This document shows positions 32,493 to 56,614 of a stretch of 64,000 nt of DNA, in pieces. Each line of letters starts with the position of its first letter. The stretch's first letter is position 1. This DNA is from Microcoleus sp. Lineage in GTDB: Bacteria > Cyanobacteriota > Cyanobacteriia > Cyanobacteriales > Microcoleaceae. The notes beneath the pieces were generated by a model. The model searched no databases and had not been told where the DNA came from. It saw nothing but the letters and a program-made list of their open reading frames with translations. The stretch covers positions 64,001-128,000 of the forward strand of contig JAYFMW010000007.1 of the NCBI GenBank assembly GCA_042408215.1. The letters are read 5' to 3'. A program made the translations under genes and the position numbers.

Positions 32493-32552
32493 TGTTTTCC
32501 GGTGTATTACCGCTCACAAGCGAATTTCCATTTCAGAGTAGGAGTCAGGTCA
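32493..32552 (-). pseudogene. Collapsed remnant of a further toxin cassette
   Basis: 32493-32518 matches 38514-38539 and 32519-32552 matches 39061-39094 of cassette E. Confidence 0.7.
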
Positions 32553-32559
32553 GAGGATG

Positions 32560-32603
32560 ATTGTACTATAATTCAGAAGTTAAAATAATTGACTAGATAA
32601 TTT
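32560..32603 (+). promoter_or_regulatory. Conserved pentapeptide-gene promoter/leader, also before 33627, 34650 and 39146
   Basis: attgtacTATAATtcagaagttaaaataattgactagataattt-ATG repeated almost exactly four times. Confidence 0.7.
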
Positions 32604-35640: not shown

Positions 35641-38600
35641 TTATTCCTCCTCAAGTTCCTCAGATTCACCCTCAAGCTCCTCAAGTTCCTCTTCCGGCTC
35701 TGTAGGGTCTTCGGGAAGTGGCGGTGGATTTGATTTCCAAGGAAGGCTAGCCCAAGTATCTCCAATAGATTCTTTACTGGGAAAGATGTATTTGATATCT
35801 TTGATATCTTGTTTTATTTCTTGAGGAAGAAGAGGGAATAGATCGTAGCCGATCTTGGTTTCTATTTCTTCAAGAGACCAGACAGGACGTTGAGTGAGAT
35901 CGTCAATCTTACTCCAATCCTTGTTTCTCCAGCCTTCGGCAATGTTACGGGGGTCTTGATTTGGATAATAAAAACCAACGGCATATACAGGAGTTGCGCT
36001 AGGGTCTGCACCCGGCTTATCCAAAACCACCATGACTTTCCATATATTTGCTGGAATTTGAATATCTTTACCGCCCGCATCCAAATTGTCCTTAATGCCA
36101 TCAATGCCATTAATGACATAGACTTCTTTACCGTTTAGCGCAAAATCTTGCCCGTAGTTTTCAAATTTCTCCCAAAAACTTACGCTATTATGTTTCGTCT
36201 GCTGTGGAACAATATTTGTTAGCAGATTGACAGCTTTACTGTCCTTGAGAGTAATACTGCGAGATGCCAGAGGTGTTTGATGACCTCCAACATAAGGAGC
36301 TCTATTTTTATAATCAGCGTTTGTCACTTGGTAAAAATCTGGTGGAAGGCTGCGATCGTTAGTGAAACCGCGCTTACTAGGATTTTGCTCTCCTGTCAAA
36401 TATATCGATGATTTATTGATCTGGAAACTCGCCCAGTTAGGTATATTTCCAGTACCGTTGTAAGACAGAGTATACTGCGGTTTTTCAAGCAGCAAGTTGT
36501 CTTTATAGAGATTCCCATCATAAGCAGCACCGCTATACCTTGCTGGACTGCTGCCATTCTTGGGTGTCGGTTCCCCAAATTTAAGAGAACTACTCTTGAA
36601 AAAGACATCATCTAAGTAAACCGCGTCGCTACCTTCCAATTCAAATTTGAGCGTCGCTGTTTTACCTCGGAACTTATCTAATTCTTTTTGTTGGGTTGAC
36701 CCTTGATAGAAAGTGTCAAATACATTAAAAGTTTCAAAACCTCTAGTCGCATATCCAAGTTTACGGGCAGCATCTTTTTCGAGATCGTTGTTGTAGAAAG
36801 AGTCTGATGTTCCTGTTAGAAAATTAGCTTCATCGAGAAGAATAATTTCAGTTATCTCTTCACCAGAAGCTACATCTTTTAGAGTAACTTTAAGCTTCCC
36901 ATGTCCATTAGCTGCTTCTTTGGGAACATGAATGTTGAACCGCAAAGACCCCCAATCTGGTACAACAAAGCGGTTGTGCGTCATGCTGTCACCACCCTTT
37001 AATTCCAGAGCATAGTTAGAGAAGTTAGGGTCATTACTATCAATACCCATCCTTTCTAGATAAGAGGTTCCAGGGATCTCATTGTTGTGTCGTAGGCTAC
37101 GTTGTTTGAGACTATCAATGGTACTCCAATTTACTAAATGCTTCGTGGGGTCTGCCAACTTTGATGTGGCACTATTGTGGAAAGACCACCCCGGAATTTC
37201 CTGAGAGATAGCATTCCGACCCAAATTTTCGGCAGCACTCTTATTAGGAATGTACTGGTCAAAATTCCCATTAAACAGAGTAGGAACCGCATAATCTCCC
37301 CGCATCCCAGCTTCAAGCGTATTATCAAAACTCACCGGAACGCGCCCAGTAGGGCTATACTGACGCTGCTCTTTACCTCCACCCAAAACAGAATAAAACC
37401 AACCCTCACCAACCCCTTCACCATTGCCATTATCATACCAAGGTTTAGCTGCCGGGAAATTCGGATCGAACATTTCGGGTAAACCCATTTTACCCAACAT
37501 ATCGTTAACTGCTTGAGGCTTCTCAGAAGCCTCCACATGAGGATACTGAAGTAAAACTTCCTCCAAGTCTAAATCAACTGTCCCCGCATACCATCCAAAT
37601 GCTCGCTTGTGCGTCCCTGCAATAACATCATCCTTAGTAAACCCAATCCGACTGTTTATCCGATCTGGTTCCTCCTCACGAGTACCGAGTAAAATCTCTC
37701 GGTCTGCCTTCCCTAAAGTAACACCCGACGCTTTAGGAAAATTCAGTCCAGCGGGTTTGGGATTCTTATCCAATTCCTCTTGTGGAAGTAGACCCAAAGC
37801 ACGACCATTAGGAGTAGCAGTACCACCATTCGGGTCAGCCACAGTTTGATAATAGTTATCAGCAAACGTAACATTATTCCAAACCTGAACCTTGGGTTCG
37901 TAGAAATCGCTGAAATTTGTTTCGATAAATTCCAGTAAATTTAATTTCAAACTAGGTTGGTAGAAATCGTGCGGGTCGATTGTTGTCATTTGGAGGTCTC
38001 GTGAGGCCATAGATTTGCCGCCCGCTTGGGGGAAAAAAGTCCCTAAACGCTGTACGATTTCGCTATTGACAACAGTACCCCGACTGAAACCCATGAAGTG
38101 CAGTGGCGAGTTGAACAAATCCCCCTGAGTGCGAATCAGGTTCCCTTGGCTGTCGTACAACCGCTTTAATTGATTGTTTTCATACTCTCCAACCTTACCC
38201 CCTAATGCCAGATCCAACTGCACCATAGAAGCAAACAAAGCATCAGCCGCGCCCTCAGAAAAGCCAACGTCAGGAATGACTGATTCTCTGTCCAACGACC
38301 ATTCATTCAGCAACACTAACGGTTTGTTATTGTTGAGGTATTTAATCTCCTTTCCATCTATAACCACACCTTTTTTTAACTTATTTGCCAAAGTTGATAA
38401 ATAAGCTGTTTCGCTGGTGTTAAGCCCGTCGGTCAACTCAGTTATTACCCGTCCCTGTAAATCTATAGGAATCCAGTTGCCTGTAGGCTTGTCGTAACGC
38501 ATAATTAACCCGCTGTTTTCCGGTGTATTGCCGCTAACAGTGGCAATTTTATTGGTCATTTGGAAAAAGGAATCAGGAATCCCAGACTGCACCGGCAAAA

Positions 38601-39094
38601 GTGTAAAACCATGAGTCAACACGCTCACGCTGCTGAAAGGACTGTTGCTAACAGGAAGTAAAGTTTTAAACTGCCCCAAATCTTTGGTCACAGCGCCGCT
38701 CTTACTCACAGCTTCAACAGCAAAATTGTAGTTCTGGCCCGCAGTAAGACTCCTCGGTAGCGTGAAGTTAGTGCTAGTATTTGCGGGGTCATTTAAAGGT
38801 TGGTCAAGAGGCGTAATCCCGTCGTGCCCGTACCACTTGCCAGTATCTTTCTTCCAAGTCGCCGTCAGAATCCGGTTGGGATTGAAGTCGTCATAACCGT
38901 TCCAAGGCTTGGAAAGAAGTTGACGCTTTTGTGTTTCCGAGAAGCCGGGAAGGAGTGCCGAATCTGATAAATCGACGACTTTATCCCAGGGCAATAAACC
39001 CTTGCCTTGCTCGAACGTACTGACAAAAAGATTGACCTCTTTCACATTCTCCCAACCAGGAGCAAACTGCCATTGAAAAGTAGGAGTCAGGTCA
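35641..39094 (-). CDS. Cassette E: 5'-truncated toxin copy (hydrolase domain plus NucA-like nuclease, acidic tail)
   Basis: Homology to the longer copies begins abruptly at DLTPTFQWQFAPGW; GFSRG; EKPQYTLSYN...NWASF...GGHQTP...TNIVPQ. Confidence 0.82.
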
Positions 39095-39145
39095 GAGGAT
39101 GATTGTACTATAATTCAGAAGTTAAACTAATTGAATAGATAATTT

Positions 39146-39964
39146 ATGAACGCTGAAGAATTGCTCCGACGGTATGCTGCTGGTGAGAGGAATTTTGCTG
39201 GGGTTGATTTGAGCGGTGTCGATTTGAACAAGGCAAATCTCCTTGAGATCAATCTCGCCAATGCCAATCTGATTAATGCTAACTTGAGTTATGCTGACTT
39301 GAGTGGTGCTGACTTGAGCAATGCTAACTCGATCAATGCTAACTTGCGTTGTATTGACTTGATTAATGCTAACTTGAGTAATGCTAACTTGAGCGAGGCT
39401 AACTTGGATGGCGCTCAGTTGATTAATGCTAATTTTAGTGGTGCTAACTTGAAAGGAGCTTGGTTGGAAGGGGCTGACTTGACTGGAGCTAATTTCAGTA
39501 ATGCCTGCTTAGAAAAAGCCAACTTAGGTCATACTGACTTAACTGATGCCAACCTCAGTGGAGTCAATTTAAAAAGTGGTTTTTTATCAGGAGTAAACTG
39601 TGAAAATACTAACCTCAACGGAGCCGATATCAGCGATGGAGATATCACTGAAGCCTACTTTGAAAAAGCGACTCTAATTGGCACGAATCTAAGTAATACC
39701 AAGTTGCATCAAACTGGGTTTTGGAATTCTGACCTAACTGGAGCTAATTTCAGCGGTGCAGTTCTCGATGAAACTTCGTTTGAAGGAGCCAATCTCAGCA
39801 ATGCTAATCTAAAGGGGGCTCAACCAGAACCTACTCTCCTCACACAGAGGATTAGGTTGATGGGGAAAGGGTTTGAAGAAGCTATCTTATGTAAGACTAT
39901 CATGCCTGATGGCAGTATCCGCAATGATAATTGTATGCCTGAACAATCCAATGAGCTAATATAA
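39146..39964 (+). CDS. Pentapeptide repeat protein (candidate immunity, facing cassette D)
   Basis: Close paralog of the 32604-35447 genes. Confidence 0.92.
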   Translation: MNAEELLRRYAAGERNFAGVDLSGVDLNKANLLEINLANANLINANLSYADLSGADLSNANSINANLRCIDLINANLSNANLSEANLDGAQLINANFSGANLKGAWLEGADLTGANFSNACLEKANLGHTDLTDANLSGVNLKSGFLSGVNCENTNLNGADISDGDITEAYFEKATLIGTNLSNTKLHQTGFWNSDLTGANFSGAVLDETSFEGANLSNANLKGAQPEPTLLTQRIRLMGKGFEEAILCKTIMPDGSIRNDNCMPEQSNELI

Positions 39965-39998
39965 AAATTTTCAGATCCAGACAATACAAAGTGGGGAT

Positions 39999-40033
39999 AA
40001 AAAATCAGGCTTCTTGGAGAAGCCTGGTTTTTT
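39999..40033. terminator. Bidirectional terminator-like hairpin
   Basis: aaaaatcaggcttc-ttgga-gaagcctggtttttt between convergent stops. Confidence 0.7.
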
Positions 40034-40066
40034 GCTACATTACACTCATCGGAAAACCTCTATCAA

Positions 40067-43000
40067 TTATTCACTCTCAAGTTCCTCAGATTCCTCTTCT
40101 GGATCTGTAGGGTCTTCTGGAGGTGGCGGTGGATTTGATTTCCAAGGAAGGCTATCCCAAGTATCTCCAATAGATTTTTGCTTTGGAAAAATGTACTTGA
40201 TATCTTTGATATCTTTTTTGATTTCTTGAGGAAGAAGAGGGAATAGATCGTAGCCGATCTCGTTTTCTATTTCTTCCAAAGACCAGACAGGACGTTGAGT
40301 ACGATCGTCTATCTTACTCCAATCCTTATTTCTCCACTTTGTGGCAATCTTACCAGGGTCTTCATTTGGATAATAAAAACCAACGGCATAAACGGGAGTT
40401 GTGGTAGGATCTGCACCTGGTTTATCCAAAACCAGCATGACTTTCCACAAATTAGCAGGAATTTGAATAGTTTTACCATCGGCATCAAATCTATCCTTGA
40501 TTCCATGAATGCCATTAATGACATAAACTTCTTTACCTTCCTTGGCAAAATCTTGCCCGTAGTTTTCAAATTTCTCCCACAGTGGGCTGTTATTTTTAAT
40601 CTGTTGTGGAACGATATTAGTCATCAGATTGACAAATCTCTTGTCTTTTATCGTAATGCTGCGAGCTGCTAGAGGTGTTTGATGACCTTGAACGTAACCC
40701 AAGGGGACTGCGCTATCGTAATCATTACTACTTACCCGATTAAAATTGGGTGGAAGGCTTTTGTCTATAATAAAAGATCGCTCAGTAGGATTAGGCTCAC
40801 CTGGCAAATATATCGATGATTTATCGATCTGGAAACTAGCCCAGTTAGGTATGTTTCCAGTACCGTTGTAAGACAGAGTATACTGCGGTTTTTCAAGCAG
40901 CAAGTTGTCTTTATAGAGATTCCCATCATAAGCAGCACCGCTATACCTTGCTGGACTGCTGCCATTCTTGGGTGTCGGTTCCCCAAATTTAAGAGAACTA
41001 CTCTTGAAAAAGACATCATCTAAGTAAACCGCGTCGCTACCTTCCAATTCAAATTTGAGCGTCGCTGTTTTACCTCGGAACTTATCTAATTCTTTTTGTT
41101 GGGTTGACCCTTGATAGAAAGTGTCAAATACATTAAAAGTTTCAAAACCTCTAGTCGCATATCCAAGTTTACGGGCAGCATCTTTTTCGAGATCGTTGTT
41201 GTAGAAAGAGTCTGATGTTCCTGTTAGAAAATTAGCTTCATCGAGAAGAATAATTTCAGTTATCTCTTCACCAGAAGCTACATCTTTTAGAGTAACTTTA
41301 AGCTTCCCATGTCCATTAGCTGCTTCTTTGGGAACATGAATGTTGAACCGCAAAGACCCCCAATCTGGTACAACAAAGCGGTTGTGCGTCATGCTGTCAC
41401 CACCCTTTAATTCCAGAGCATAGTTAGAGAAGTTAGGGTCATTACTATCAATACCCATCCTTTCTAGATAAGAGGTTCCAGGGATCTCATTGTTGTGTCG
41501 TAGGCTACGTTGTTTGAGACTATCAATGGTACTCCAATTTACTAAATGCTTCGTGGGGTCTGCCAACTTTGATGTGGCACTATTGTGGAAAGACCACCCC
41601 GGAATTTCCTGAGAGATAGCATTCCGACCCAAATTTTCGGCAGCACTCTTATTAGGAATGTACTGGTCAAAATTCCCATTAAACAGAGTAGGAACCGCAT
41701 AATCTCCCCGCATCCCAGCTTCAAGCGTATTATCAAAACTCACCGGAACGCGCCCAGTAGGGCTATACTGACGTTGCTCTTTACCACCACCCAAAACAGA
41801 ATAAAACCAACCCTCACCAACCCCTTCACCATTGCCATTATCATACCAAGGTTTAGCAGCCGGGAAATTCGGATCGAACAATTCGGGTAAACCCATTTTA
41901 CCCAACATATCGTTAACTGCTTGAGGCTTCTCAGAAGCCTCCACATGAGGATACTGAAGTAAAACTTCCTCCAGGTCTAAATCAACCGTCCCAGCATACC
42001 ATCCAAATGCTCGCTTGTGCGTCCCTGCAATACTATCATCTTTCGTAAACCCAATCCGACTATTTATCCGATCTGGTTCCCCCTGACGAGTACCGAGTAA
42101 AATCTCTCGGTCTGCTTGCCCTAAAGTAACACCATTAACTGTCGGAAAATTCAGTCCCGCAGGTTTAGGATTCTTATCCAATTCCTCTTGTGGAAGTTGA
42201 CCCAAAGCACGACCGTTGGGAGTAGCAGTCAAACCATTAGGATTAGCCACAGTTTGATAATAGTTATCAGCAAACGTAACATTATTCCAAACCTGAACCT
42301 TTGGTTCGTAGAAATCGCTAAAATTTGTGCTGATAAAACCAGGTAATTGTAAATTCAAACTAGGTTGGTAGAAATCGTGCGGGTCGATTGTTGTCATCTG
42401 GAGGTCTCGGTTAGCCATAGATGTTCCACCAGCTTGGGGGAAGAAAGTTCCTAAACGCTGTACGATTTCGCTATTGACAACAGTACCCCGACTGAAACCC
42501 ATGAAGTGCATGGGCGAATTGAACAAATCCCCCTGCTGGCGAATCAGCTTCCCTTGGCTGTCGTACAACCGCTTTAATTGATTACCTTCATATTCTCCAA
42601 CCTTACCCCCTAATGCCAGATCCAATTGCACCATTGAGGCAAACAAAGCATCAGCAGCACCTTCGGAGAAGCCAACATCGGGAATAACTGACTCCCTATC
42701 CAGCGACCATTCATTCAGCAACACTAACGGTTTGTTCTTGTTGAGGTATTTAATCTCCTTTCCATCTATAACTACCCCGGCTTTTAACTTATTTGCCAAA
42801 GTTGATAAATAAGCTGTTTCGCTGGTGTTAAGCCCGTCGGTCAACTCAGTTATCACCCGTCCCTGTAAATCTATAGGAATCCAGTTACCTGTAGGCTTGT
42901 CGTAGCGCATAATTAACCCGCTGTTTTCAGGTGTGTTGCCGCTAACAGTGGCAATTTTATTTGCCATTTGGAAAAAGGAATCAGGAATCCCAGACTGCAC

Positions 43001-43662
43001 CGGCAAAAGTGTAAAACCATGAGTCAACACACTCACGCTGCTGAAAGGACTGTTGCTAACAGGAGGTATGGTTTGAAACTGCCCCAAATCTTTGGTCACA
43101 GCCCCGCTATTACTCACAGCTTCAACAGCAAAATTGTAGTTCTGCCCCGCAGTAAGACTCCTCGGTAGCGTGAAGTTAGTGCTAGTATTTGCGGGGTCAT
43201 TTAAAGGTTGGTTAAGAGGCGTAATCCCGTCATGGCCGTACCACTTGTTAGTATCTTTCTTCCAAGTCGCCGTCAGAATCCGGTTGGGATTGAAATCGTC
43301 ATAACCGTTCCAAGGCTTGGAAAGAAGTTGACGCTTTTGTGTTTCCGAGAATCCGGGAAGGAGTGCCGAATCTGATAAATTGACAACCTTATCCCAGGGC
43401 AATAAACCCTTCCCTTTATCGAAGGTACTGACAAAAAGATTAACCTCTTTCACATCCTCCCAACCCGGAGCAAACTGCCATTGAAAAGTCGGAGTCAGGT
43501 CACTTGTAGTTGCACCAGACCCCTTCAAATTCAGCCAGTCAGTCGGTGCAATGCTCAAATCCCGTAAATTTCCCCCAGTACCGATGGGTGCGCGTGTTGT
43601 ACCTGACGGCACCCCATAAGTAAACTGATTAGCAGGTCGGTTCTCCTGAAGAATCCCATAGT
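40067..43662 (-). CDS. Cassette D: 5'-truncated toxin copy (hydrolase plus NucA-like nuclease, acidic tail)
   Basis: Homology begins at YGILQENRPANQFTYGV; GFSRG; VQGHQTP...TNIVPQ. Confidence 0.82.
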
Positions 43663-43724
43663 TAAATATCCTAACCTTCTTTTACTCCTTTTTATAATAC
43701 CTAGAGAATTGTAGTATAATTTAT

Positions 43725-43837
43725 AAACATGAATGTTGAACTTCAAAATACCGGATTTAGGCACAACAAACTGATTGTGTGTAATGCTGTTATCAGATGT
43801 TAATCTCAAAGCATAGTTAGGTTTAGCTGGATCGTAG
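43725..43837 (-). pseudogene. Degenerate toxin fragment
   Basis: YDPAKPNYALRLTSDNSITHNQFVVPKSGILKFNIHV matches cassette C YDPAQPNYALKLTSDDSITHNRFVVPDWGTLRFNLHV. Confidence 0.75.
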
Positions 43838-43858
43838 TAGAGATTTAGGAGGAGAGTT

Positions 43859-44800
43859 ATGGACAGAGAAGAATTACTGAGACGATATGCTAATCGGGAA
43901 AGAGATTTTTCTGGGAGCGATCTGACTAATGTTGATTTAACTGGCATTAACTTAAGTCACGCTAATTTTACAGAGTCTAACTTGAGAAATATCAACTTGC
44001 TTAATGCCAATCTCAGTCATGCCAATTTCTCGAATTCAGGCTGGGAAGAAAGCAATCTGCGGGGGGTGAATTTGAGAGGAGCCAACTTAGAAGGTGTTGT
44101 GATGAGAGATATTATTTTAGAGAACGCTGATTTAACTGATATTAACTTGAGCAATGCTGAACTCAATGAAGTTTACCTCATGGGTGCTAATCTAACTGGT
44201 GCCAACTTGAGTAATGCTTCTTTGTATATTGTGAGTCTTGCCTCTGCTAACTTGGAGCAAGCTATATTCCGCAATACTACTCTTGATGAAGTTAGTTTTG
44301 AGCCTCCAAATCCACGATATATAGAAGTTCGTAAATTGCTCGAACAGTACGCTGCTGGGGAGAGAAATTTTGCGGGAATTAAGGTTAATAACACTGCCCT
44401 GAGCGGGGTTGACCTAAGTGGAATCAATTTGAGCAAAGCCCACCTTATGACTCTCAATTTGAGCAATGCCAATTTGAGTAATGCTCACTTGCAGGGAGCT
44501 AGAATGCTTGGTACTAACCTAAGTGGCGCGAATCTGAGCGGGGCTAATCTAAGCAATGCCGACCTCAGCGGTACGAATCTGAGAAAAGCTAATTTGAACG
44601 ATGCCGACTTAAGAGATGCTATTTTGAGTGGTGCTGATTTGACCGAGGCTGACTGCGAGAGAACCAAAACTGAAAATGTTATTTTGGTGGCAACCAACCT
44701 GACAGGTGCCAAAGGTTTTGGCAGTGGGATAGGATCTTTTGTCTGCAAAACCATTGAACCAGGGGGAGAATTCGTAGAGGGACCCGATTGGATTGAGTAA
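43859..44800 (+). CDS. Two-module pentapeptide repeat protein
   Basis: Two N-cap motifs (EELLRRYANRERDF and KLLEQYAAGERNF); RBS aggagg. Confidence 0.9.
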   Translation: MDREELLRRYANRERDFSGSDLTNVDLTGINLSHANFTESNLRNINLLNANLSHANFSNSGWEESNLRGVNLRGANLEGVVMRDIILENADLTDINLSNAELNEVYLMGANLTGANLSNASLYIVSLASANLEQAIFRNTTLDEVSFEPPNPRYIEVRKLLEQYAAGERNFAGIKVNNTALSGVDLSGINLSKAHLMTLNLSNANLSNAHLQGARMLGTNLSGANLSGANLSNADLSGTNLRKANLNDADLRDAILSGADLTEADCERTKTENVILVATNLTGAKGFGSGIGSFVCKTIEPGGEFVEGPDWIE

Positions 44801-44950
44801 ATAAACTTATAAATTTAATATTATACCAATATTAATTTAACAGTTTTGAGTAGCGATAGGAGACCAGAAATAATCAGAATTTTATTCATAAAAGGTAAGA
44901 GTGAAAGTGCGTGCTAATATGAAAGCATAAACAACTTGCATAAGAAAGCT

Positions 44951-45631
44951 ATGGACGTTGAAGAACTATATAGGCGTTACGCTGCGGGAGAGAGGGATTT
45001 CTCTGGAGTTGATTTAAGTCGTGCTAACTTAAACGTTGCTGACGTGACATACGTCGAAGACCTAGAACCAGGTCAAAATGACTTGAGCGGTATCAATCTC
45101 AGCGGTGCTAACTTGACTAAAGCAAATCTGAGTCTTGTTAATCTCAGCGGTGCTAACTTAAGCGATGCTCAACTTGATTGGGCTAAGCTAGCTGAAGCTG
45201 ACCTATCGGGGGTCAATCTTAGCAATGCTAGTTTATCTTCTGCCGAATTATGCCGAATCGATCTGAGTGGAGCTGACTTAAGTGGGGCAAATTTGGATTG
45301 TACTGACTCAACAGGAGCCAACTTAAGGGGAGCTAACCTCAGCGGGGCAAGTATAGCTGAAGCTATATGGGAAGCAACTGACTTGAGCGGTGCTAATTTG
45401 AGCGAAGCTAATTTGACACAAAGCGCTCTTTGCAATGCCAATTTAACAGGGGCTTGCTTAAGAGATACAAATTTAGAGGAGCCTTCGCTAGATGGAGCTA
45501 ATTTAACCAATGTAGACTTAAGTGAATCTTTCATCAATTTAGATATGGCTAACATTAACAGAATTAGGGGCGCAATTTTGTGTAATACAACTATGCCAGA
45601 TGGCAGTATTAGGAATGACCATTGTCAGTAA
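44951..45631 (+). CDS. Pentapeptide repeat protein (facing cassette C)
   Basis: MDVEELYRRYAAGERDF...LCNTTMPDG; ATG at 44951 preferred. Confidence 0.9.
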   Translation: MDVEELYRRYAAGERDFSGVDLSRANLNVADVTYVEDLEPGQNDLSGINLSGANLTKANLSLVNLSGANLSDAQLDWAKLAEADLSGVNLSNASLSSAELCRIDLSGADLSGANLDCTDSTGANLRGANLSGASIAEAIWEATDLSGANLSEANLTQSALCNANLTGACLRDTNLEEPSLDGANLTNVDLSESFINLDMANINRIRGAILCNTTMPDGSIRNDHCQ

Positions 45632-45721
45632 ATAAGTTTTCTGTATTAAAAGTAGCGAGGAAGAATTGATTCGCCCTCGCTAGTTAAGCAATTATTGCCA
45701 AGTGTTAGCTACTACCAAAAC

Positions 45722-47331
45722 TTAGGTAACTACATTTGGAAAATCATTAACTGTCACTGAACCAATATAGGATCGGCTCTCCAATATATTTTCAATTTCA
45801 TCTGGGAGGTTGGAGAGAAGGTCAAGACCTGTAAGTTCTTCAATCCTGTCAACAGTAGTTATGTTTTCCGGATCAAACCACGGTATTCGCGTTGTACCGG
45901 GATAATTAGGAAAATTAGGTAGCATGACAGCTATTACAGGTGTATTTGCTGTTACATCTGCTATACCTTGTCCAGGTCTTAGAGGTACAATCACTTTCCA
46001 CATGAATTCAGGAAGATTAATGTTCTCTATATTGAGGGGGTTATCGGGTGGTAATTCGTCATTATACGATTCATATCCACCCGCAATGTTATACAATTCC
46101 CAACCACGATCCTTAACAATTCCCTTACTAAAGACTTCTAACGCTCGCCATGCTCCTCTTTGATTCTCCCCTGGTTCTTGTGGAAGTAAGTTCGTTGTCA
46201 GGAATGTAGCAAACTGATCTTTCTGAGTTCTTTGACGCTGTTCTCTAGCAGTCAAGTGACCTCGGTCAAAACCACTATTTCGGTATTCCCATCCCTCGGT
46301 TGTATCTAATTCACTGGGAAGTGCGCTATCTGACCTCCAAGGGAAAGGATCGTAAGGCTCTGCACCACCCCCCTGTGGTGATCCAAGATTGCCCAACCAC
46401 GTTTTGTTGAGCTGCCAACTCACCCAATTAGAACCTTTGTTACTCTCATTATAAGACAGCGAATACTGTGGTTTTTCAATCAAATAGTTGTTGGCATTAG
46501 CAGCGGCATTCGGTCTAGCTACTTGTCCGTTTAAAGTGGGATTACCAAACATGAGATGAGTGCTCTTAAAGAAGACATCATCAAGATAAACTGTATCATT
46601 CCCTTCCAACTCAAACTTAAGCTTAGCTGACTTGCCCCGCAACACTTCAGGTACATCAACATGGAAAGTTTCAAACCCTACATTACCATAACCAATCCGG
46701 TTAGTGTCAGTATCAGCATAGCCTGTAGGGTAAGCGATTTCTGCTAAATCACCTGGATTAACTCGACCATCGGCCACTCTCAAGTCAATATTACCTATGG
46801 GTTGATAATTTTCATAACCAGGTTCATCGCCTTGGATAGAAACCTTTAACGTGCCACCATTAGGATTAGGAACATGAAGATTAAATCGCAAAGTCCCCCA
46901 ATCAGGCACAACAAACCGATTGTGTGTAATGCTGTCATCAGATGTTAATTTCAGAGCATAGTTAGGTTGGGCTGGATCGTACCCTACCAGTGTCCTGTAA
47001 TTGTCAAGACTAGGAATATCCCTCCAATCAACTAACCTACTTGTCGGCGACGCAATATTTGACGTACCGCCGTGAAAAGACCAACCAGGAATCGCATCAG
47101 AAATCGCATTTCGGAACAAACTACGCGGATTAAAGACAGCATCAAAATTGCCACCAAAAAGAGTAGGAATCGCAAAATCTCCCCGCATCCTGCTTTCTGC
47201 TGTATTGTCAAAAGAAAGAGGCACGCGCTCCACATTATTAGTCGGTCGCAAATTAGCGATCGCACCCGTATTAGGATCTTTAGTCAAACCACCTCCAACA
47301 ACAGAATAGAACTAACCAGTACCAATACCCT
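45722..47331 (-). CDS. Cassette C: shortest 5'-truncated toxin tip (NucA-like nuclease)
   Basis: Homology to cassette B starts at GIGTG(W>stop at 47312-47314)FYSV; FGNPT, EKPQYSLSYN, NWVSWQL, FDRGHLT, TNLLPQ. Confidence 0.82.
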
Positions 47332-47397
47332 TCTTTCTAATCAAAAAATGAGGTATTATTAACAGCCTACAATGATTATAAACTAAGGACAAAAGTT

Positions 47398-47985
47398 ATG
47401 GATGCCGAACAATTACTAAGACGATACGCTGATGGTGAAAGAGATTTTGAAGGTGTTGACTTGAGAAGGGTTGATCTATGTAATGCCAATTTGAGCGGTA
47501 TTAATTTGAGAAATTCTTATATTGAAGAAAGTGGGCTGATACACATCAATTTGAGCGGTGCCAATTTAGAGGGTATTGATTTAAGGGATATTGTTTTGGA
47601 AAATGCCAACTTGAGTGCTGTGAATATGATCGAGGCTAACTTAAGTGAAGTCAATTTGATGTGTGCCAATATAACAGATGCAAATTTTAATGGTGCTTGC
47701 CTTTCTAATGTCCGCCTTCTCTACGCTAACCTATCGAGAAGTATATTCAGAAATACCAAGATGAATGAAGTTGATTTTGATGGTACTAACTTGGCCGATG
47801 CTGATTTTAGAGATGCTAAAGATGCTTATCTTGATGATATATACATCTTCGATCCCTACCTAAGATATGCTGCCGTTAAGCCTGTTAGCCCGAATCTTAT
47901 TGAGAGAGGAGGGGCTATTTTTTGTCACACTATTATGCCAGATGGGAGTATCTGTAATGACGGTTGCGATCGAATCAGATCGTGA
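47398..47985 (+). CDS. Pentapeptide repeat protein
   Basis: EQLLRRYADGERDF...FCHTIMPDG; resembles the first module of 43859. Confidence 0.9.
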   Translation: MDAEQLLRRYADGERDFEGVDLRRVDLCNANLSGINLRNSYIEESGLIHINLSGANLEGIDLRDIVLENANLSAVNMIEANLSEVNLMCANITDANFNGACLSNVRLLYANLSRSIFRNTKMNEVDFDGTNLADADFRDAKDAYLDDIYIFDPYLRYAAVKPVSPNLIERGGAIFCHTIMPDGSICNDGCDRIRS

Positions 47986-48059
47986 AACCAGCCACCTATC
48001 CTATGGAGAACTACTAACAATAGGATCTATAATCGTAATAGAGATTTAGGAGGAGAGTT

Positions 48060-48539
48060 ATGGATGCTAAAGAATTGCTCGAGAGGTACGCTGCTGGAGA
48101 AAAAGATTTTAGCGGAGTTGATTTGAGTGCTGTAAACCTTGTCCGCGCCTACCTTCCCGAAATTAACTTGAGCAACGCCAACTTGAGAGGAGCTAACTTT
48201 GTCTGTGCTGAACTCAACGGAGCCAATCTTAGTGGAGCCGATTTAAGTAGAGCTGCTTTGAGCGGAGCGACCTTGGAAAATGCCGATTTGAGTAGAGCAG
48301 ATTTAACTGAAGCGAATTTAGCTGATTGTATTTTGGAGGGAGCAGATTTAACTGAAGCTGATTTGAGCAGAGCGAACCTTATCGAAGCTCCCCTTATTAA
48401 TGCAAATTTGACCAGAGCTATACTGGATGATGCTTTATTAGGCAGCCCTTTGCTTGAAGGAGCCAATTTGACCGGGGTTGATTTGAGCAAGGCCAGAATG
48501 GATGTCTTTCCCTACGGATATGAGTTCTTAGACACCTAA
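48060..48539 (+). CDS. Pentapeptide repeat protein lacking the MPDG C-cap (possibly truncated)
   Basis: KELLERYAAGEKDF; same gatttaggaggagagttATG leader as 43859. Confidence 0.85.
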   Translation: MDAKELLERYAAGEKDFSGVDLSAVNLVRAYLPEINLSNANLRGANFVCAELNGANLSGADLSRAALSGATLENADLSRADLTEANLADCILEGADLTEADLSRANLIEAPLINANLTRAILDDALLGSPLLEGANLTGVDLSKARMDVFPYGYEFLDT

Positions 48540-48821
48540 ATTACTCGTTGCGATCCACGAAGAAATGAGGAGAAGGGAGAGAGAGGATTCATGCTTCAAA
48601 AAATGACTAGCCTTTCTAGTTGATTAGTTAACTCAATAGTTCTCACGTAAAGTTCACTAATACTCGTCATCTTTTTAGTTATTTCTAAGGAAGATTAATT
48701 GAAATTAATTCCTCAGTATTCAAAAGTGCAAATTAAATGCAGACAACTAGCATCAGACATTGGCAAAGTCTTGCTATATTGATAGTATAAACTGATATTC
48801 TAAATAGAGGGAGGGAAAAAC

Positions 48822-49310
48822 TTGAACGTTGAAGAACTATATAGGCGCTACGCTGCCGGAGAGAGGGATTTCTCTGGAGTTGATTTAAGTCATGCTAACT
48901 TAAACGTTGCTAAAGTGGGTGATATCAGAGACCTCCCACCAGGTCAAAATGAGTTGATCGGTATCAATCTCAGCGGTGCAAACTTGACCAGAGCTATTTT
49001 GAGTTTTGTAAATCTCAGCGGTGCAAACTTGAGTAGTGCAAACCTAGAATTTGCGATCCTATTAGGTACTATATTGACTGGTGCCAATCTGAGTCATGCT
49101 ATCCTAAATTATGCCGACGAGGTATGCGACCTAATTGATGTTGACTTGAGAGAAGCCAGTCTATTTTGTACGCGATTGCTTGGTTCTAACCTAACCAGAG
49201 CTAACTTGATGGGGGCAACATTGAAAATCGTACCAAAGGGTCGTTTGATTTTTAGTGATACCATCATGCCAGATGGTACTATTAATAATGAAGATGAAAA
49301 TTATGGTTAG
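48822..49310 (+). CDS. Pentapeptide repeat protein (facing cassette B)
   Basis: TTG start after gaggag; paralog of 44951; DTIMPDG cap. Confidence 0.88.
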   Translation: MNVEELYRRYAAGERDFSGVDLSHANLNVAKVGDIRDLPPGQNELIGINLSGANLTRAILSFVNLSGANLSSANLEFAILLGTILTGANLSHAILNYADEVCDLIDVDLREASLFCTRLLGSNLTRANLMGATLKIVPKGRLIFSDTIMPDGTINNEDENYG

Positions 49311-49484
49311 CCTAAATCATTTGTGCAATAGCGTGTAATAGTAATGCTTGCTGAAGCAGCTTTTCCGATATTTTTGCTTTGCACAACTCATTTAGGTTCG
49401 CTATAGTTCAATCTCATTAAAACCCAAGAGCCTGATAAGCCAAGTCAGCTTGACAGCAGGCTACTTTGTTTGTTGTCTAGATCA

Positions 49485-52400
49485 TCAGCCTCCTGATTCG
49501 ATTATTTCCTCAATCTCATCAGGAATATTTGAGAAGAAGTCAAGCCCAGTCAAAGCCTCGATTTCGTTAACAGTCAGCTTCCATGTTTGCCAATTTCTCC
49601 AAGCAGCTTTGTTTGGTATATCTGGACGACTTAACCCCAACAAAGCATTGAATGGGTGAGGAACTGATAGCGCAAAATCTCCATTATTACCTACTGTGCC
49701 ATTTGGATTAGCTGGTACGTGATCTGGTTCAACCTCGTTGGGTGTTAAAATGCCGTAAGTTGCAGCGTTAGCAATTGTGACACCAGCAGGAGTCAGTCCT
49801 GGTTGCTCTAAATCCAGTACAACCTTCCAAGTCCAACCAGGAATATTAATTCCTTTATTTATAAGAATTTGGGGATTTGTTAATGTGGTAGGTTCCGAGT
49901 AATGACTGAAACGCTGCGGATCGGGATTGCTGCCATAACCCCCAGCCACAACATAAAGCTCTTTTGGGGTCTCAGTAATTGGATCGCTCTTAGTAATCTT
50001 TTTAAGAAAATCGTCAAAACTTGTCCATACTGCACGATCTGGGATTTCTCCAGTAAACACCTCATTGTTATCAAAATGCTGTGGAATTACATTTGTCAAC
50101 AGAAAAGTAGCTATGTTGTCTTTTTCGCTATTAGTTCGGTGATCCGAAGGTAGCAGATGCCCCTTTCGATATTCACTGCCAACGTAGTCTTCATTTACGA
50201 TCCGACCCCAGCTTTCAGGAATACTTTGATCTTCAATAAAGTTGATTTTTGAACGAGGAGTTTCATCCAGCCACTTTTGATTCATTTGCCAACTTACCCA
50301 TTTAGGAGTTTTACTGCTGTCATTGTAAGCAGTCGCAAACTGTGCTTTCTCTAGCAAATAGTTATTGCTATCCGCAACATTAAGGTTAGTTGTATTCCTC
50401 GCATCTGAGGGATTTCCAAACAGTAGATGTTGACTTTTGAAGAATACATTATCTAAGTAAACAGTACCGCCACCAACAACTTCAAACTTGAGGGTTGCTA
50501 CTTGACCACGCAAATTGTCAGGTACCTCAAATTGGAAAGTCTCAAACCCTTGAATTCCATAATCAATCTTTTGAGTGTCTGCTAAGTAAGAACCTCGTGT
50601 GCGATTTGCTCGCGTCAAGTTGACCGATGATGAAACGCCTAAAGGACTTCCATCTGCTGCTTCTAAAGTGACCAAAACACTTCTTCCCGAACCCAGTTCT
50701 GCTTCTGGAACATGGAGGTCAAACCGTAAATTTCCCCAATCAGGTACAACAAAACGGTTGTGAGTAATACTTTTACCTGATTCTAGCTTCAGAGCATAAT
50801 TTTGTTGAGTGCGATCGACTCCAATTCTATCGAGTTCTGCGTGCAAAGCCGGAGCATCACTTGCAGATAGCTGATTCACATCAACGAGATTATTTGTAGA
50901 CACACTAGCCGATGTTTCATCATTATGAAAAGACCAGCCCGGAATCGCATCAGAAATCGCATTTCGGAACAAACTACCCGGATTAAAAACAGCATCAAAA
51001 TTGCCACCAAAAAGAGTAGGAACCGCAAAATCACCCCGCATCCGCCTTTCCGCTGTATTGTCAAAAGAAAGAGGCACGCGCTCCAGAGTATTAGTCGGTC
51101 GCAAATTAGTAATCGCACCCGTATTGGGATCTTTAGTCAAACCACCTCCAAGAACAGAATAGAACCAACCAGTACCAATACCCTCATTGGGAGCATTAGC
51201 AGCACCCAGAGAAAAGTTAGGTTGCCCGCTATATTTAGGCGTGTACCAGGGGTTGACACGAGGGTCTTGAGGACTTCCACTGAAAGAAAAGTCTCTGTCA
51301 AACAGTTGCTCGTAATGCCCATCACCCCGACGCCGCGAGATCGGGTCAACAGGTTGCGTACTAGAAGAATTTTGGCGATACTCAGTTAGTCCCAGGTCAG
51401 CAGTCCCCGCATACCACGTCAGGACTCGCCCGTGCGGCCCCCCAGCGAGATCGTCTTTCGTAAACCCCGGCAAACTATTTTCATAACCATCAGCATTGCG
51501 TCGAGTACCCAAGAAAACCGTTTCGTCAGGTTTCCCTAGAAGTTCCCCCGCACTGTTTCTGGGAAATTTGAGACCTGCTCTAATCTCTGTTCGCAGAGCA
51601 TCGGGCCCGCTCAAATTGGGAATGTCTCGACCCGCAGGTGTCAGCGTAGGAATTTGTGGAATGCCTTGGTCTAGCCTGGGTACCGTTTGGTAGTAGTTGT
51701 CGGCAAAAGTCACATTCTTCCAAACCTGAACCTTCGGTTCGCGGAAATCTGCAAATCCCGCTTCTCCTAGAAATGGTAACTGTACCGAAAAACTTGGTTG
51801 GTCAAAATCATGGGGATCTAATGTAGTCATCTGGAGGTCGCGAAACAGAGAATTCTCCTTCCCGCCAGCTAGAGGGAAGTAAGTCCCTACACGCTGAATC
51901 ATTTCGCTATTGACCACAGCCCCCCGACTGAAGCCAACAAAGTGCAGTGGCGAATTGAAAATTGCCCCCTGAGAGCGAACAAAATTCCCTTGGCTGTCGA
52001 ACTTAGCACCACCTCCGAGCGACTGATCTAGCTGCACTAGCGAAGCAAAGAAACTATCTGCTGCTCCCTCCGTGAAGCCAGAATCGGGAATAGCTGACTC
52101 ATTATTTTGAGACCAGTCAGGCAGAAGCACTAATGGTTTGTTGGCTTGGAGGTAGGGAGCTATATAGCTCGACAAAGCAGTACGATAACTGGGAGCGGCT
52201 TGGTCAAAACCATTAGGAAAATAAGTTGAATTACTAAAGAAATCACCCAAGACTTGCCCGTATTTATCGACCGGAACCCAGTTACCTGTGGGCGAGTCGT
52301 AGCGCATGAGCAATCCTTCACCCCCAGTAGTAGCAATGCTGTCAGCCATTTTGTAGAATTCGCTGGGAATCCCTGGTCCGGTAATGACCGGAGGCTTAAA

Positions 52401-55400
52401 ACCGTGGGTCAGTACAGTGACGCTGCTGAAAGTGCTGTTGCCGTTGAGAGCAGGCGGTGGCGATGTTTTGAACTGCCCAACATCGAGATTTCGCTTTCCA
52501 TCCTTGCTCAAAGCTTCAACAGCCCAATGATAAGTCTGACCAGCCGTCAGAGTCCGATTATCGGGCAGTGTGAACTGGGTATTGGTGTTTGAAGGGTCAA
52601 GGGGTAGACCACCAAGCCCCACCCAGCCTTGACCGGGCTTCCAAGTCGCTGTCAGGATGCGGTTGGGGTTGTAGTCATAAGTACCGAACTGGGAGTTCCA
52701 TTTTGCTAACAAGTTTTGCTGCTGCTGTGGGCTGAGATTATTGAAGTTTGGATTTTGGATATTGGCGAGATCCTCCCACCTATCCTCTGGCAACAAACCC
52801 TCCCCTTTATCGAAGGTACTGACAAAAAGATTAACCTCTTTCACATCCTCCCAACCCGGAGCAAACTGCCATTGAAAAGTCGGAGTCAGGTCATTTGTAG
52901 TTGCACCAGGCCCCTTCAAATTCAGCCAGTCAGTCGGTGCAGAACTCAAATCCCGTAAATTGCCTCCAGTACCGACTGGTGCGCGTGTTGTCTGCGGCAG
53001 CACCCCATAAGTAAACTGATTAGCAGGTCGATTCTCCTGAAGAATCCCATAGTCAGCAGCAATACTAATAGCCGGATTTATATCATCAATAGGAACCCTT
53101 GTGAAATCAGCCGCAGTCACAGACTTCGCCGTAGTAGCATTGAAGAAAGGAGACTTAACACCCCTGTCAAGGCTGTCAATTTGGAATTGACCAGGATTGT
53201 CCAGGGTTTTGATGATCTCCTCGACATTAAAGGTATAAACCCCCCCAGCACTACCAGGAGCCGGGTAAGAAGAAAATAGGGATTTATTGTCATTCGATAG
53301 TACCAAATCGTTCGTCAGCCCCCCAGGAATCGGTCTGGTAGCAGCTACTAATTGAGGATTCGGTCCCAAGGGGTCTTTGATAATACCAATGTTGCTCCCA
53401 GAGCGCGGATCCGCATAGGGGTTGACATAATTTCTATAATTGCGACCCGCAACGAACGCATATCGCCCGTCACGCATTACCGTTACAGAAACTCCCTCGT
53501 TGACATCAAAGTAATCGTTGGCAAAACCCAACCCTAAAGGAATATAGCGGACAGCGGTAGCAAAATTGAGGGGGTCATCAGACGTAATTTCCAGCACGCC
53601 AAAGCCCTTGCTGTCATCCTGAAGGGGTAGAAAATCGGTTTGTATGCTAGCCAATCCGTTGGTGAAAACCATTTTTCGGGGGTCAGCGGTAGCTGCTATC
53701 CCCTCTGTCTCTGAAGCGGTGGCAATTACTCCAATCTGCTGGTGCCACTTCCGCTCGTTAGAACCCTCAGCGATCGGTTTGTCGCGAGGGTCAATGTTGA
53801 CCGCATAAATGCTACGGTTGCGTACTCGTTCATTATCGTCGGAACCCGTAGCGAAGAGCTTGCGCCCGTCGCTGCTGATGGCCAACTGGCTCAGTCCCAG
53901 TGGCGATGTAACGTTAATGGTTTGAACAACAGTGTGATAGGTTGCTGAGAAGGGGTCGATGTCGAGGACGTAGATGTTGGGCCGATCGCGATCGGCAATG
54001 TAAGCATAATTATCCTTGGGGTCGATCGCGATCGACTTAGGTTTAGCCCCCGCTGGTAGAACAATAGGATTGACACCCGGAGTATTGGGCTGGGTGTCCA
54101 CTTGTCGCAGTACCATCGGATCGACCATCGCGACGCCGCCTGATTCCCTTAAGACTACATAAACCCTCGTGCCGTCGCTAGTCACAGCGCTCGCTTCTGC
54201 GGCATCAGTAGACTTGTCGCCTACGGGGATTCTGGAAATTAACAAGTCCTTGCTTCTGGTAGCTTCTACCACTGCTTTTGGATTAGAACCCTGAATAACT
54301 ACCAGTTCGCTCAAACTTTTGGGGTTGATTGGGGGGAAGTTCTGGGTTGCAAAAACGTACTCTGCCCCCTGTGGCAGACGTATTGGATTGCTGCTGTACT
54401 CAATAGGTTTATACACCGGTGCCGTGCCGTTTTGCTCGACCAACTGATTTTGCTTCCTGGTCAAAACTATGCCGGATGCACCCAGGGGTAAGGTGTTGGG
54501 AACTTGTACGGCAACTTCAAACTGGTTGCCCCCAACAGAACGGCTGCGGTTGGGCAATATCGTTCCAGGGTACACCTGATTCCCGACCTGAAATTCCACA
54601 ACCAAGTCCTCAAACCGACTGCCTTTAGAGTCGCTGGCATTGTTGACCAGAATGTTGCCCCCCGTTAGGAAAAGAAGTGGTTCGCCTTTCTCAAATTGCT
54701 GGTTGTTCTCATCCTTGAATTTCAATTCAGCTTTTTGGAGGACAGGAGGTGTTGTGGGGTCAGAGGTGGTTGGGGCTGGCATATTCAAAGCTGCCTTAAA
54801 TGTGGCGGTGCCGTCGTCGTTTCGCTGGACACCCACCTCTGTGACGACGGGAAGTCCCACCTTGGGGATTGCTACCACCTGCACTGAAGATATGTCGCGA
54901 GTTACGGTAAAGGCTGGAGTGGTAACGAATTTGTCCGGGTCGATTAACTGACCGATATTTCCCAGGGGGTCAATGATGCCAAAAAATGCTAGGGGGAAGT
55001 TGTAGTTGAGGGTAAGCTGACCTTTGACTAAGGTGGCGCTGCCTGTCGGACTGGCGTAGACTACTGCGTATTCGCCTGGTCTGACCACGCCTGGATAGGG
55101 AGGAGACTGGGTGCGAATGTTGCCGTCATCTCCGACTATGCCTGATTCTTCTTGCAGCCAAATCGGATTCCAAGTGCCGATTGCGTCAGGAATTGCTCCT
55201 TTTCGCAGGAAGTATGCCACAGTTCCTGGTGCTAATCCGGCTGGTGCTGGTATTGCTAACTGGGCGGGTATATTCAGGGAGTTATCGCTAAAGTTTAAGT
55301 TGAAGGCTCCTGCAAATTCAAATCCCGGTGGTAGTGGTAGGGACAAGTTTTGTTGGTTGACTGGGGCAATGCTGACGGTTGCATTCTGTTTGAGAGCGCC

Positions 55401-56500
55401 CGGAGGTATCATGACTGCTAGGGTTCCGTCGCTTGAGTTGATGATGCCACCGTCGGTTCCCAAGGCTGTTGTGCCGATTTTCGGTGCTTCGACTCGAACT
55501 GGAATGGTGGCGGATGCGGTTCCGTGAATGGCTGTGACGGTGGCATCGCCAATGCCGACTGCTGTAATGGTGCCGTCGGGACTGACGTTGAGGATGTTGC
55601 TGTTGTTGCTAAAGTAGCGCGTACCTGTGCTGGCTGCGGTTAAGTTGGCTTCGGTGAAGTTGGAGTTTAAGCTGAGGGAGAGTTTCCGCGTTGCGCCAAC
55701 AGATAGGGAGACGGCATCTGGGTAGGGGTCTAGTCCGTACATTTCGGCTAGTATCTGATGCAGTTGAGCGTCTGTTGTGGGTGCTGGCATCGTCCCAATT
55801 CGGATTGGGGTGACTGCTTGTAGGTTATTTCGACTTGCGCTCAAAACTGAAGTACCGTTGGTTAAACCTGTCACTTTCCCCGTTGGATCAATTGGTGCTA
55901 CTTCTGGATTTATTGAAGTGTAAGTTAGATAAGAATCTGGGAGCACTACACCTTTTTGGTCGGCAAAATCTCCGAGCACAATCAATTCCGTATTTTCTCC
56001 TGCATTGAGGCTCGGATTTCGCTTCACAAAATCTAGATTCAGCAGGGGAACATCGCTGACATTGACTGTCACGCGCGCGGGCGTTGAACTCCCAAAAGCG
56101 TCGCTGGCAAGGAAATCAAAGCTGGCAATTCCAGAGAAGCCGATTGCTGGTTTAAACGATGCTTTGTTCGTTAAGGGATTGAAAATTACAGTACCGTTTA
56201 CTGGACCCTGGACGCTAATTGTGAGAGGGTCGCCCTCTGCATCTGTGGCAAGATTGTCTAATGAAATAGTTGTCTCTAATTCTGTATAAGTCCGAGTGCT
56301 TGTCGGTGAAACAACGGGCGGATTGTTGTCAGAATTCGGGGGATTGGCTTCGGCGAGCAATTGTTGTCCTAAGGTCGTATTGCGCCATTCTTTGTCAGGG
56401 TTGATGACTGTATCTAGCAGCGGTGCGTTTCCTGTTGCGCCACTAATTTTAAAGATTAGGTCATTGTAATCTCTGTCTGAGTTCGCTGATGATGCGGGTG
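49485..56500 (-). CDS. Cassette B: long 5'-truncated toxin copy (DUF4114-like end, Ig-like repeats, beta-propeller, hydrolase, NucA-like nuclease)
   Basis: Frame is open to ~56546 without ATG or signal peptide and reads SDRDYNDLIFKISGATGNAPLLDTVINPDKEWR upstream of the ORF call; GFSRG; YRKGHLLP...TNVIPQ. Confidence 0.82.
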
Positions 56501-56614
56501 ATTGAGAAATGCTTGTAATTGCAGTAGTATTTGAATAAAAATAGTTTTAAACATACAAATACTCTTACCTGGGATTCTGGTTATTATTGTAAATAAATTC
56601 TAGGAGACAAAGTT

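Follow-up and report, generated by a model that had tools for sequence, protein, structure and literature searches.

A full-length NucA-tipped gene, four 5′-truncated cassettes and convergent pentapeptide repeat genes in Microcoleus: a locus resembling the orphan arrays of polymorphic toxins

The subject of this paper is an array of nuclease-tipped genes in Microcoleus sp., a filamentous cyanobacterium that forms mats (GenBank assembly GCA_042408215.1, contig JAYFMW010000007.1, positions 64,001 to 128,000 of the forward strand; the whole stretch of 64,000 nucleotides (nt) that was analysed is called the window, and coordinates are counted from its first letter). The array consists of five long open frames on the minus strand of this 64-kb window, the full-length gene A followed by the truncated cassettes B, C, D and E, each of which ends in a nuclease domain, the tip. 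Between them lie, on the plus strand, ten genes for pentapeptide repeat proteins (PRPs), every set of which is convergent with the preceding toxin gene and divergent from the next cassette.

Gene A (57419-64000+, minus strand) has its 3′ 2193 codons inside the window. The frame is open to window coordinate 67033, beyond the window end, and the likely start is a GTG at window coordinate 66994 preceded by AGGAG, which gives about 3190 codons in total. The domain order is Pro/Thr-rich repeats, DUF4114, Ig-like domains, beta-propeller, lipase-like domain, pre-tip domain and finally the NucA-type tip (57422-58291, minus strand), which has a DRGH motif and matches Pfam family PF01223 with an E value of 8e-29.

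The four cassettes, all on the minus strand, begin at different points of the trunk, the part ahead of the tip. Cassette B (49485-56546; 2353 open codons) starts inside the DUF4114 motif SDRDYNDLIF, with DNA homology to A from 56483. Cassette C (45722-47331) starts at 47331 with GIGTG*FYSV, a TAG replacing TGG at 47312-47314, and has 529 open codons (frame 45722-47311) and 6 codons upstream of the TAG. Trunk homology begins at about 43662 (YGILQENRP) in cassette D (40067-43681; 1204 open codons) and at 39094 (DLTPTFQW) in cassette E (35641-39114; 1157 open codons). B and C each have a NucA tip of their own, and D and E likewise end in NucA tips. As many as 1,700 codons separate the truncation points, which fall within domains (DUF4114 in B), and B-E together keep about 5,240 orphan codons open. 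Near the 5′ edges of the four cassettes there is no ATG, only GTG and TTG codons within conserved coding sequence, and trunk homology ends 52 nt (E), 67 nt (C), 132 nt (B) or 197 nt (D) from the start of the divergent PRP gene. A preliminary description of this DNA had named the four truncation points, the want of a convincing ATG, the abrupt end of homology beside the next PRP leader and the intactness of the frames apart from the TGG to TAG change at the edge of C; comparison of DNA and frames bore it out in all of these.

Smaller remnants are also found in the array. Between the 5′ junction of D and the PRP gene at 43859 lies a relic of the pre-tip domain, degenerate and about 200 nt long (43687-43899, minus strand), which matches A residues 2721-2791 and is conserved in a related genome (G011). 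A trunk scar of about 45 nt (32519-32563, no strand assigned) with the DLTPTFQW junction as in E is situated upstream of the last PRP gene, at the distal end of the array. Just past the stop of D a pattern match, and no more than that, indicates a terminator-like hairpin with a T run (40006-40026, minus strand); patterns of the promoter and terminator kinds were counted no more often than in shuffled sequence. The list of open reading frames (ORFs) in the window contains no integrase or transposase between the cassettes, and likeness of the PRP leaders is confined to related PRPs, which led us to reject a mechanism of the integron or shufflon type.

All five tips belong to the NucA clade of His-Me finger nucleases, with the catalytic GH...N positions kept. 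Pfam Endonuclease_NS (PF01223) was found in five of five (99-120 bits; cut-off 23), and a profile of 50 tips matched the structures 1ZM8 and 2O3B of Anabaena NucA (the latter with the inhibitor NuiA) with an E value of 2e-74. In the alignment of the 50 tips G118 is invariant, and at least 90% of the tips retain H119, N141 and other positions. Variation is seen directly before GH, where D and E carry Q or G for R; the D tip has QGH instead of RGH and an acidic tail.

The PRP genes, named here by P and their first coordinate, have clear starts with a Shine-Dalgarno (SD) sequence and ATG. A is followed by P56615 (56615-57337; PF00805, E value 2e-34; SD and ATG), the predicted cognate immunity gene of the A tip, and B by three genes (48822-49310, 48060-48539 and 47398-47985), which span 47398-49310. 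The two after C (44948-45631 and 43859-44800) accompany the C-type tip in other species. P39146 after D (39146-39964) has a perfect TATAAT 33-38 nt upstream of its ATG, and the three tandem genes after E (34650-35447, 33627-34427 and 32604-33401) repeat with a period of 1023 nt and a nt identity of 84-88%. The repeat family PF00805 was present in all eight PRPs that were scanned (81-196 bits; cut-off 20.2); those at 33627 and 32604 stood outside the scan and are 84-88% identical in nt sequence to a scanned PRP. Among the structures matched were 3DU1, 2J8K, 2XTY, 2BM4 and 2XT4, including QnrB1, MfpA and AlbG-like proteins. The median isoelectric point (pI) of the array PRPs is 4.3, lower than the median of 5.6 among 37 PRP-like ORFs from elsewhere in the genome.

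A convergent PRP-like ORF lies at most 1.5 kb downstream of 47 of the 49 toxin ORFs that contain the pre-tip motif and the GH motif and have at least 1.5 kb of downstream DNA; one more has a co-directional PRP only. The base rate in the source genome, by the same criterion, is about 0.057 PRP-like ORFs per 1.5 kb. Such loci were found in records of Microcoleus, Tychonema, Okeania, Oscillatoria, Phormidium, Baaleninema and Lyngbya. When the tips of two loci are at least 80% identical (66 pairs), 98% of the pairs have a PRP identity of at least 60%; when tip identity is below 30% (463 pairs), 2% do. The A type is paired with P56615, which accompanies A-type tips in two other loci, the B type with P48822, which adjoins B-type tips in nine of nine other loci, the C type with P44948, and D and E with the P32604/P33627 types. 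P48060 and P47398 are extra PRPs, for which there is no matching tip. In the genome as a whole, 14 of 51 PRP-like genes are located within 4 kb downstream of a NucA-like tip. The inhibitor NuiA (PF07924) had no match in the source genome; the control genomes gave none either, so this search is little telling. The array PRPs are likely immunity proteins of the adjacent tips and are predicted to act by DNA mimicry, as is established for PRPs of the MfpA/Qnr type.

The cassettes differ greatly in how far they resemble one another. D and E are alike in 92% of nt over 3440 nt, the related tips included, and share an exact block of 920 nt (D 40854-41773 = E 36446-37365, minus strand). The block stops where the nuclease domains begin; there the nt identity drops to 56-90%, and the amino acid (aa) identity, 100% before the tip, is 52-86% within it. 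For 920 identical bases in a pair that has diverged by 8%, chance is not a realistic explanation. C and B are 94% identical over only 259 nt (B 50926-51184). At the protein level, A and B are 92-100% identical over A residues 900-1550 and 1874-2120, 45-84% in the intervening propeller region and about 60% beyond residue 2120, and D and E are 88-100% identical to A over A residues 2074-2694, except for a patch of 58-61% at 2259-2337. From about A residue 2695 onward all tip types diverge. A trunk that is 86-100% alike is combined with tips of which the types are 23-50% alike in aa sequence, the conserved trunk and variable tip of polymorphic toxins. The ratio of nonsynonymous to synonymous substitution rates (dN/dS) was 0.13-0.37 in all 15 segment comparisons with divergence (D versus E: trunk 0.18, tip 0.31); therefore the differences arose in coding sequence under purifying selection, not by decay in place.

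Of 24 other genomes of the genus 14 have the trunk, as against none of 16 from other families in the order; the pre-tip domain occurs in 33 of 79 genomes of the genus, the source genome included. The closest copies are in Tychonema and Microcoleus records. A long gene together with truncated cassettes recurs in three genomes (G003:C98; G042, an assembly of six contigs; G051, a genome of one contig).

Contig C50 of genome G011 is collinear with window positions 41563-47331 (95.6% over 5777 nt). Its long gene, of at least 2441 codons and running off the contig, leads from a B-like trunk straight into a C-type tip (100% aa identity over 250 residues), which is followed by a P44948-like (100%) and a P43859-like (93%) PRP. 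Compared with G011, the source genome has the B tip and three PRPs inserted at GIGTGW, orphaning C. The next cassette of G011 is an orphan of 1193 codons with the D junction, 95% identical in nt through junction and relic. It is D-like in its 5′ part only, is A-like from the pre-tip domain on, and ends in an A-type tip (92% aa identity), after which come a P56615-like PRP (92-93%) and a B-edge scar. In other genomes an orphan that has the E junction to the base carries a different tip (G013:C257), a D-type tip (89% over 265 aa) sits on a gene of 3004 codons followed by two P32604-like PRPs (86-91%; G042:C4), and an E-type tip (92%) sits on a cassette of 2299 codons (G054:C185). One trunk junction bears different tips in different species, and the identity profiles of the cassettes across genomes are mosaic.

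These sequence comparisons show, on an evolutionary scale, exchange of tips among cassettes and full-length gene by homologous recombination, because tips of the A, C and D types, together with their PRPs, hold an orphan position in one species and belong to the long gene in another. Modules of tip and PRP have moved between long-gene and orphan positions, and the orphan junctions are older than the species. The preliminary description had suggested a comparison of strains for the tip on the full-length gene; on the long genes of relatives it is the C type in G011 and the D type in G042. An assembly artefact is unlikely, since the same junctions recur in the assemblies of other species and arrays are present in the genomes of six contigs and of one contig.

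Contigs from public sequence data add the following. Those of DNA metagenomes cover most of the stretch in pieces and contain mosaic joints, e.g., from 38404 to 42841 in X6, which may be strain variants or chimeras. Contigs from RNA libraries touch E, D, C and B as well as PRPs; strand, level and context are not readable from contigs, and stretches left uncovered carry no weight. An RNA-library contig of 2383 nt from a relative joins 47235 to 51089, i.e., a C-like tip to a B-like trunk at homologous positions, as in G011.

Upstream of gene A are genes for a HerA-like ATPase and a PRP. Its N-terminus (L001:2950-2994), MPLTDPIGEPLIEELESLIPGL, shows no signal peptide by eye and is conserved in paralogs and relatives; we take it to bear a loose resemblance to a leader of the double-glycine type. 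The Pro/Thr-rich N-terminal part contains about nine tandem units of 48 nt (L001:2053-2470; window 66053-66470), each coding for about 16 aa, LEPNKT[AV]PATV[LS]PTDK, which likely form a stalk of variable length. The trunk domain comprising A residues 2120-2640 (window 59084-60646, minus strand) is 31-94% identical to homologues across cyanobacterial genera. Its predicted model (mean predicted local distance difference test score, pLDDT, 75) has a weak likeness to alpha/beta-hydrolase lipases and phospholipases, including a Tle effector of the type VI secretion system (Foldseek E value 1e-4, template modelling (TM) score 0.24/0.41). The GFSRG motif in the trunk was rejected as that of a serine hydrolase, the Ser being Gly in 18 of 54 homologues and the match to the lipase fold being weak. 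The domain could possibly be a second, membrane-directed activity or a dead scaffold.

Other members of the family were encountered in passing. In G042 an insert of 2.5 kb between the pre-tip domain and the D-type tip carries an ORF of 607 codons (G042:C4:22423-24243, L022), which presumably, to go by its motif, encodes a group II intron reverse transcriptase/maturase; if the insert splices, the toxin gene would remain intact. A paralog of A broken into three frames (G000:C8:166430-175274 and 163527-165785) has a non-nuclease C-terminus (...FDPKQVVVVEE), an ending of a type also present in G009 and G042; hence members of the trunk family bear toxins of more than one type. Behind this paralog come a co-directional gene of 185 codons and, after it, a fragment of a nuclease tip accompanied by two PRPs. 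At contig ends (C13:83877-88037, C15:74737-78666 and C30:1464-5624) there are additional N-terminal copies; the family thus counts more members in this genome than the assembly shows. Paralogs of another, shorter family (about 1780-1880 codons) have an N-terminus of their own. In other cyanobacterial orders the pre-tip domain occurs within open frames longer than 3,800-4,300 codons that continue beyond the sequence retrieved (L044, L061, L077, L099 and L108); L044 and L061 are Calothrix plasmid records, and some of these frames are on plasmids. Just past the array in our window there is an ORF of 250 codons (31602-32354, minus strand) that is internally duplicated (…HDRFAKEYL… / …HNRFAKNLL…) and has no match in Pfam.

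The explanation that we favour, with a probability of roughly two in three, is that of a polymorphic-toxin locus composed of a full-length NucA-tipped gene and four headless cassettes, with the PRPs as predicted immunity proteins and with tip exchange via recombination in the trunk. The truncated cassettes probably both give and receive tips, by homologous recombination within the trunk that they share. That the reservoir is still live and that the cassettes are silent is likewise likely. We envisage that a module of trunk piece, tip and PRP, either incoming or duplicated, would join the long gene through two events, a homologous crossover in the trunk and an illegitimate joint beside the PRP leader. 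Entry of a module would displace the older tip downstream; the B tip with its three PRPs may in this way have entered at GIGTGW. Unequal crossing-over between the trunk repeats would then duplicate, delete and re-fuse modules, of which the D/A hybrid of G011, with its P56615-like PRP and B-edge scar, may be an example. With their own promoters and ribosome sites the PRPs would keep immunity on, and the headless toxins would not be exported. In the proposed inhibition the PRP would occupy the DNA groove of the nuclease and thereby block it. The preliminary description had seen in the cassettes a reservoir of tips for recombination; the cross-species swaps support the part of this that concerns past tip exchange, whereas the kilobases of identity do not hold and C is without DNA homology to A.

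A number of findings weigh against the favoured explanation. The similarity available for recombination is far from the kilobases of identity that had at first been assumed: nt similarity ranges from 86 to 92%, D and E being 86-88% identical to A over about 2 kb and B 86.5% over 3.7 kb; the longest exact blocks shared with A are of 133-198 nt. C has no DNA-level match to A, so that its direct fusion to A by homologous recombination is unlikely. Within the genus 9 of 106 pre-tip matches carry internal stops, i.e., some cassettes decay. In the first 998 residues of A only DUF4114 was matched, and no secretion-related Pfam or NCBIfam family. Promoter-like hexamers lie upstream of B (56610-56583), of C (47382-47355) and of D (43803-43774), all of them on the minus strand, and SD-like sites precede TTG or GTG in C (GGAGG) and E (GGGAG). 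Public runs included no reads of the strain itself; the best run contained 0.58 of the sampled words and consisted of contigs only. As to immunity, the tips are themselves acidic, and P56615 has a pI of 6.6 and is thus not acidic, as against an acidic surface composition in nine of the ten array PRPs. In 11 pairs two tip types that are about 50% alike share one PRP type, and the loci counted above come from related genomes and are not independent. Immunity genes of known polymorphic toxins are in the same operon and co-directional, whereas the PRP genes, directly downstream in the 47 of 49 loci, are on the opposite strand.

The cassettes could be a fossil record only, that is, remains of past tip replacement that are kept for the immunity conferred by the neighbouring PRPs against toxin-making kin and have no role as donors. 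[quoted passage not shown] Yet the approximately 5,240 orphan codons have stayed open even though the junctions of D and E are older than species splits, the 920-nt exact block of D and E shows recent exchange, different tips occur at one junction across species, and the same modules are on long genes elsewhere, all of which makes a mere fossil record rather unlikely in our estimation. A lower probability still must be given to the cassettes being separate working genes, with transcripts that start in the divergent intergenic region and shorter nucleases made from internal GTG or TTG codons. The hexamers upstream of B, C and D and the GGAGG and GGGAG sites would fit such genes, as would dN/dS values well below 1 and the shorter paralog family (1780-1880 codons) with its own N-terminus. 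The promoter-like sites, however, which also occur upstream of several PRPs, are not above chance (29 found, 32.4 expected in shuffled sequence), and the SD-like sites of C and E are Gly/Trp-Glu codons ahead of GTG/TTG inside conserved trunk codons also found in A. Moreover, truncation points that lie up to 1,700 codons apart and cut domains, the TAG at the edge of C and products lacking the conserved N-terminal 900-2,600 residues make working genes improbable.

NucA and NuiA are a secreted nuclease of nutritional or defensive role and its dedicated inhibitor, and NucA is the closest solved relative of the tips. There might accordingly be no conflict system at all, but surface or secreted nucleases scavenging extracellular DNA, with the PRPs as intracellular safety inhibitors and the array as a paralog expansion. 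PRPs could then stand in the place of NuiA, of which the source genome showed no trace, nor did the controls. Against scavenging speak the concentration of diversity in the tip (D and E are 100% identical in aa before it and 52-86% within it), the tracking of tip type by PRP type, and the combination of truncated cassettes with cross-species module shuffling, which are hallmarks of polymorphic toxins and not of a housekeeping enzyme. We hold scavenging to be very improbable.

Going beyond the locus, we put forward tentatively, and at somewhat less than even odds, that throughout the cyanobacteria PRPs form a class of immunity proteins which, as DNA mimics, counter polymorphic toxins of the NucA type and are encoded convergently and expressed from their own promoters, and that the array is an accordion in active recombination by which kin boundaries are set in mats of the Microcoleus type. 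The locus suggests a role for PRPs, which are abundant in cyanobacteria without explanation, namely that of antidotes to nuclease toxins. If this is true, the pairing of tips and PRPs, to judge from the 14 of 51 PRP-like genes here, accounts for a good part of the cyanobacterial PRP expansion, and the opposite-strand arrangement may explain why operon-based surveys missed it. The comparisons between species also provide an unusually clear record of how an array is built and reshuffled by ordinary recombination.

In the literature that was searched there is no report of a PRP shown to inhibit a nuclease toxin, and no description was found of PRPs conferring immunity to NucA toxins or of orphan arrays in cyanobacteria, subscription journals lying mostly outside the search. 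Two hints exist: PRPs adjoin GH-E toxins (PMC5714182), and a PRP has been annotated as antitoxin of a toxin of the type VII secretion system (bioRxiv 10.64898/2026.07.13.738213). The array PRPs share the PF00805 repeat family and, in nine of ten cases, the acidic surface composition with MfpA, Qnr, AlbG and the cyanobacterial proteins All3740 and Np275/276. The mimics MfpA, Qnr and AlbG, unlike the role proposed for the array PRPs, protect gyrase from drugs or toxins. Anabaena NucA with NuiA, the closest solved relative of the tips, resembles the array in being a cyanobacterial nuclease with a dedicated protein inhibitor and differs from it in being a stand-alone secreted enzyme, the inhibitor of which is NuiA and not a PRP.

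Polymorphic toxins with Tox-NucA domains have, like the array tips, a C-terminal DNase of the NucA clade of His-Me finger enzymes with the pattern GH...N...N...E and are polymorphic (Zhang et al., 2012; PMC3482391). In the accessible part of that survey Tox-NucA is assigned to nine phyla or groups, cyanobacteria not among them, and the partners given are Imm36, Imm-SUKH and Imm-NTF2, without mention of pentapeptide repeats (Zhang et al., 2012). According to the same part only neighbours on the same strand were counted as operons; a convergent partner would therefore be missed.

The closest parallel to the array as a whole are the orphan modules of the CDI and Rhs systems (cdiA-CT/cdiI and rhs-CT/rhsI), which, as described in the accessible part of PMC4927057, follow a full-length toxin gene as 5′-truncated copies with some trunk homology, another toxin and a partner gene, and likewise occur in tandem. 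Displacement, which would leave fossils, and duplication with recombination, which would create a silent reserve, have both been proposed for them there, with reference to Poole 2011 and Koskiniemi 2014. The array differs from these systems in its cyanobacterial trunk, of which the orphans retain up to 2,350 codons, in its partner genes, which are PRPs on the opposite strand with leaders of their own, and in the absence of transposase and integrase genes between the modules in this window; Pfam scans of A-E found no TPS, FHA, VENN/pretoxin, CdiB, YD-repeat or PAAR parts. Orphan-cassette arrays have been well studied in proteobacteria and hardly in cyanobacteria, and here the same logic is seen in a mat-forming genus on an unrelated trunk. 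With four truncated cassettes near a full-length gene and exchange of modules across species, we regard the array as a polymorphic-toxin orphan array of the CDI/Rhs kind that is a member of neither family and is new in its cyanobacterial trunk and its opposite-strand PRP partners.

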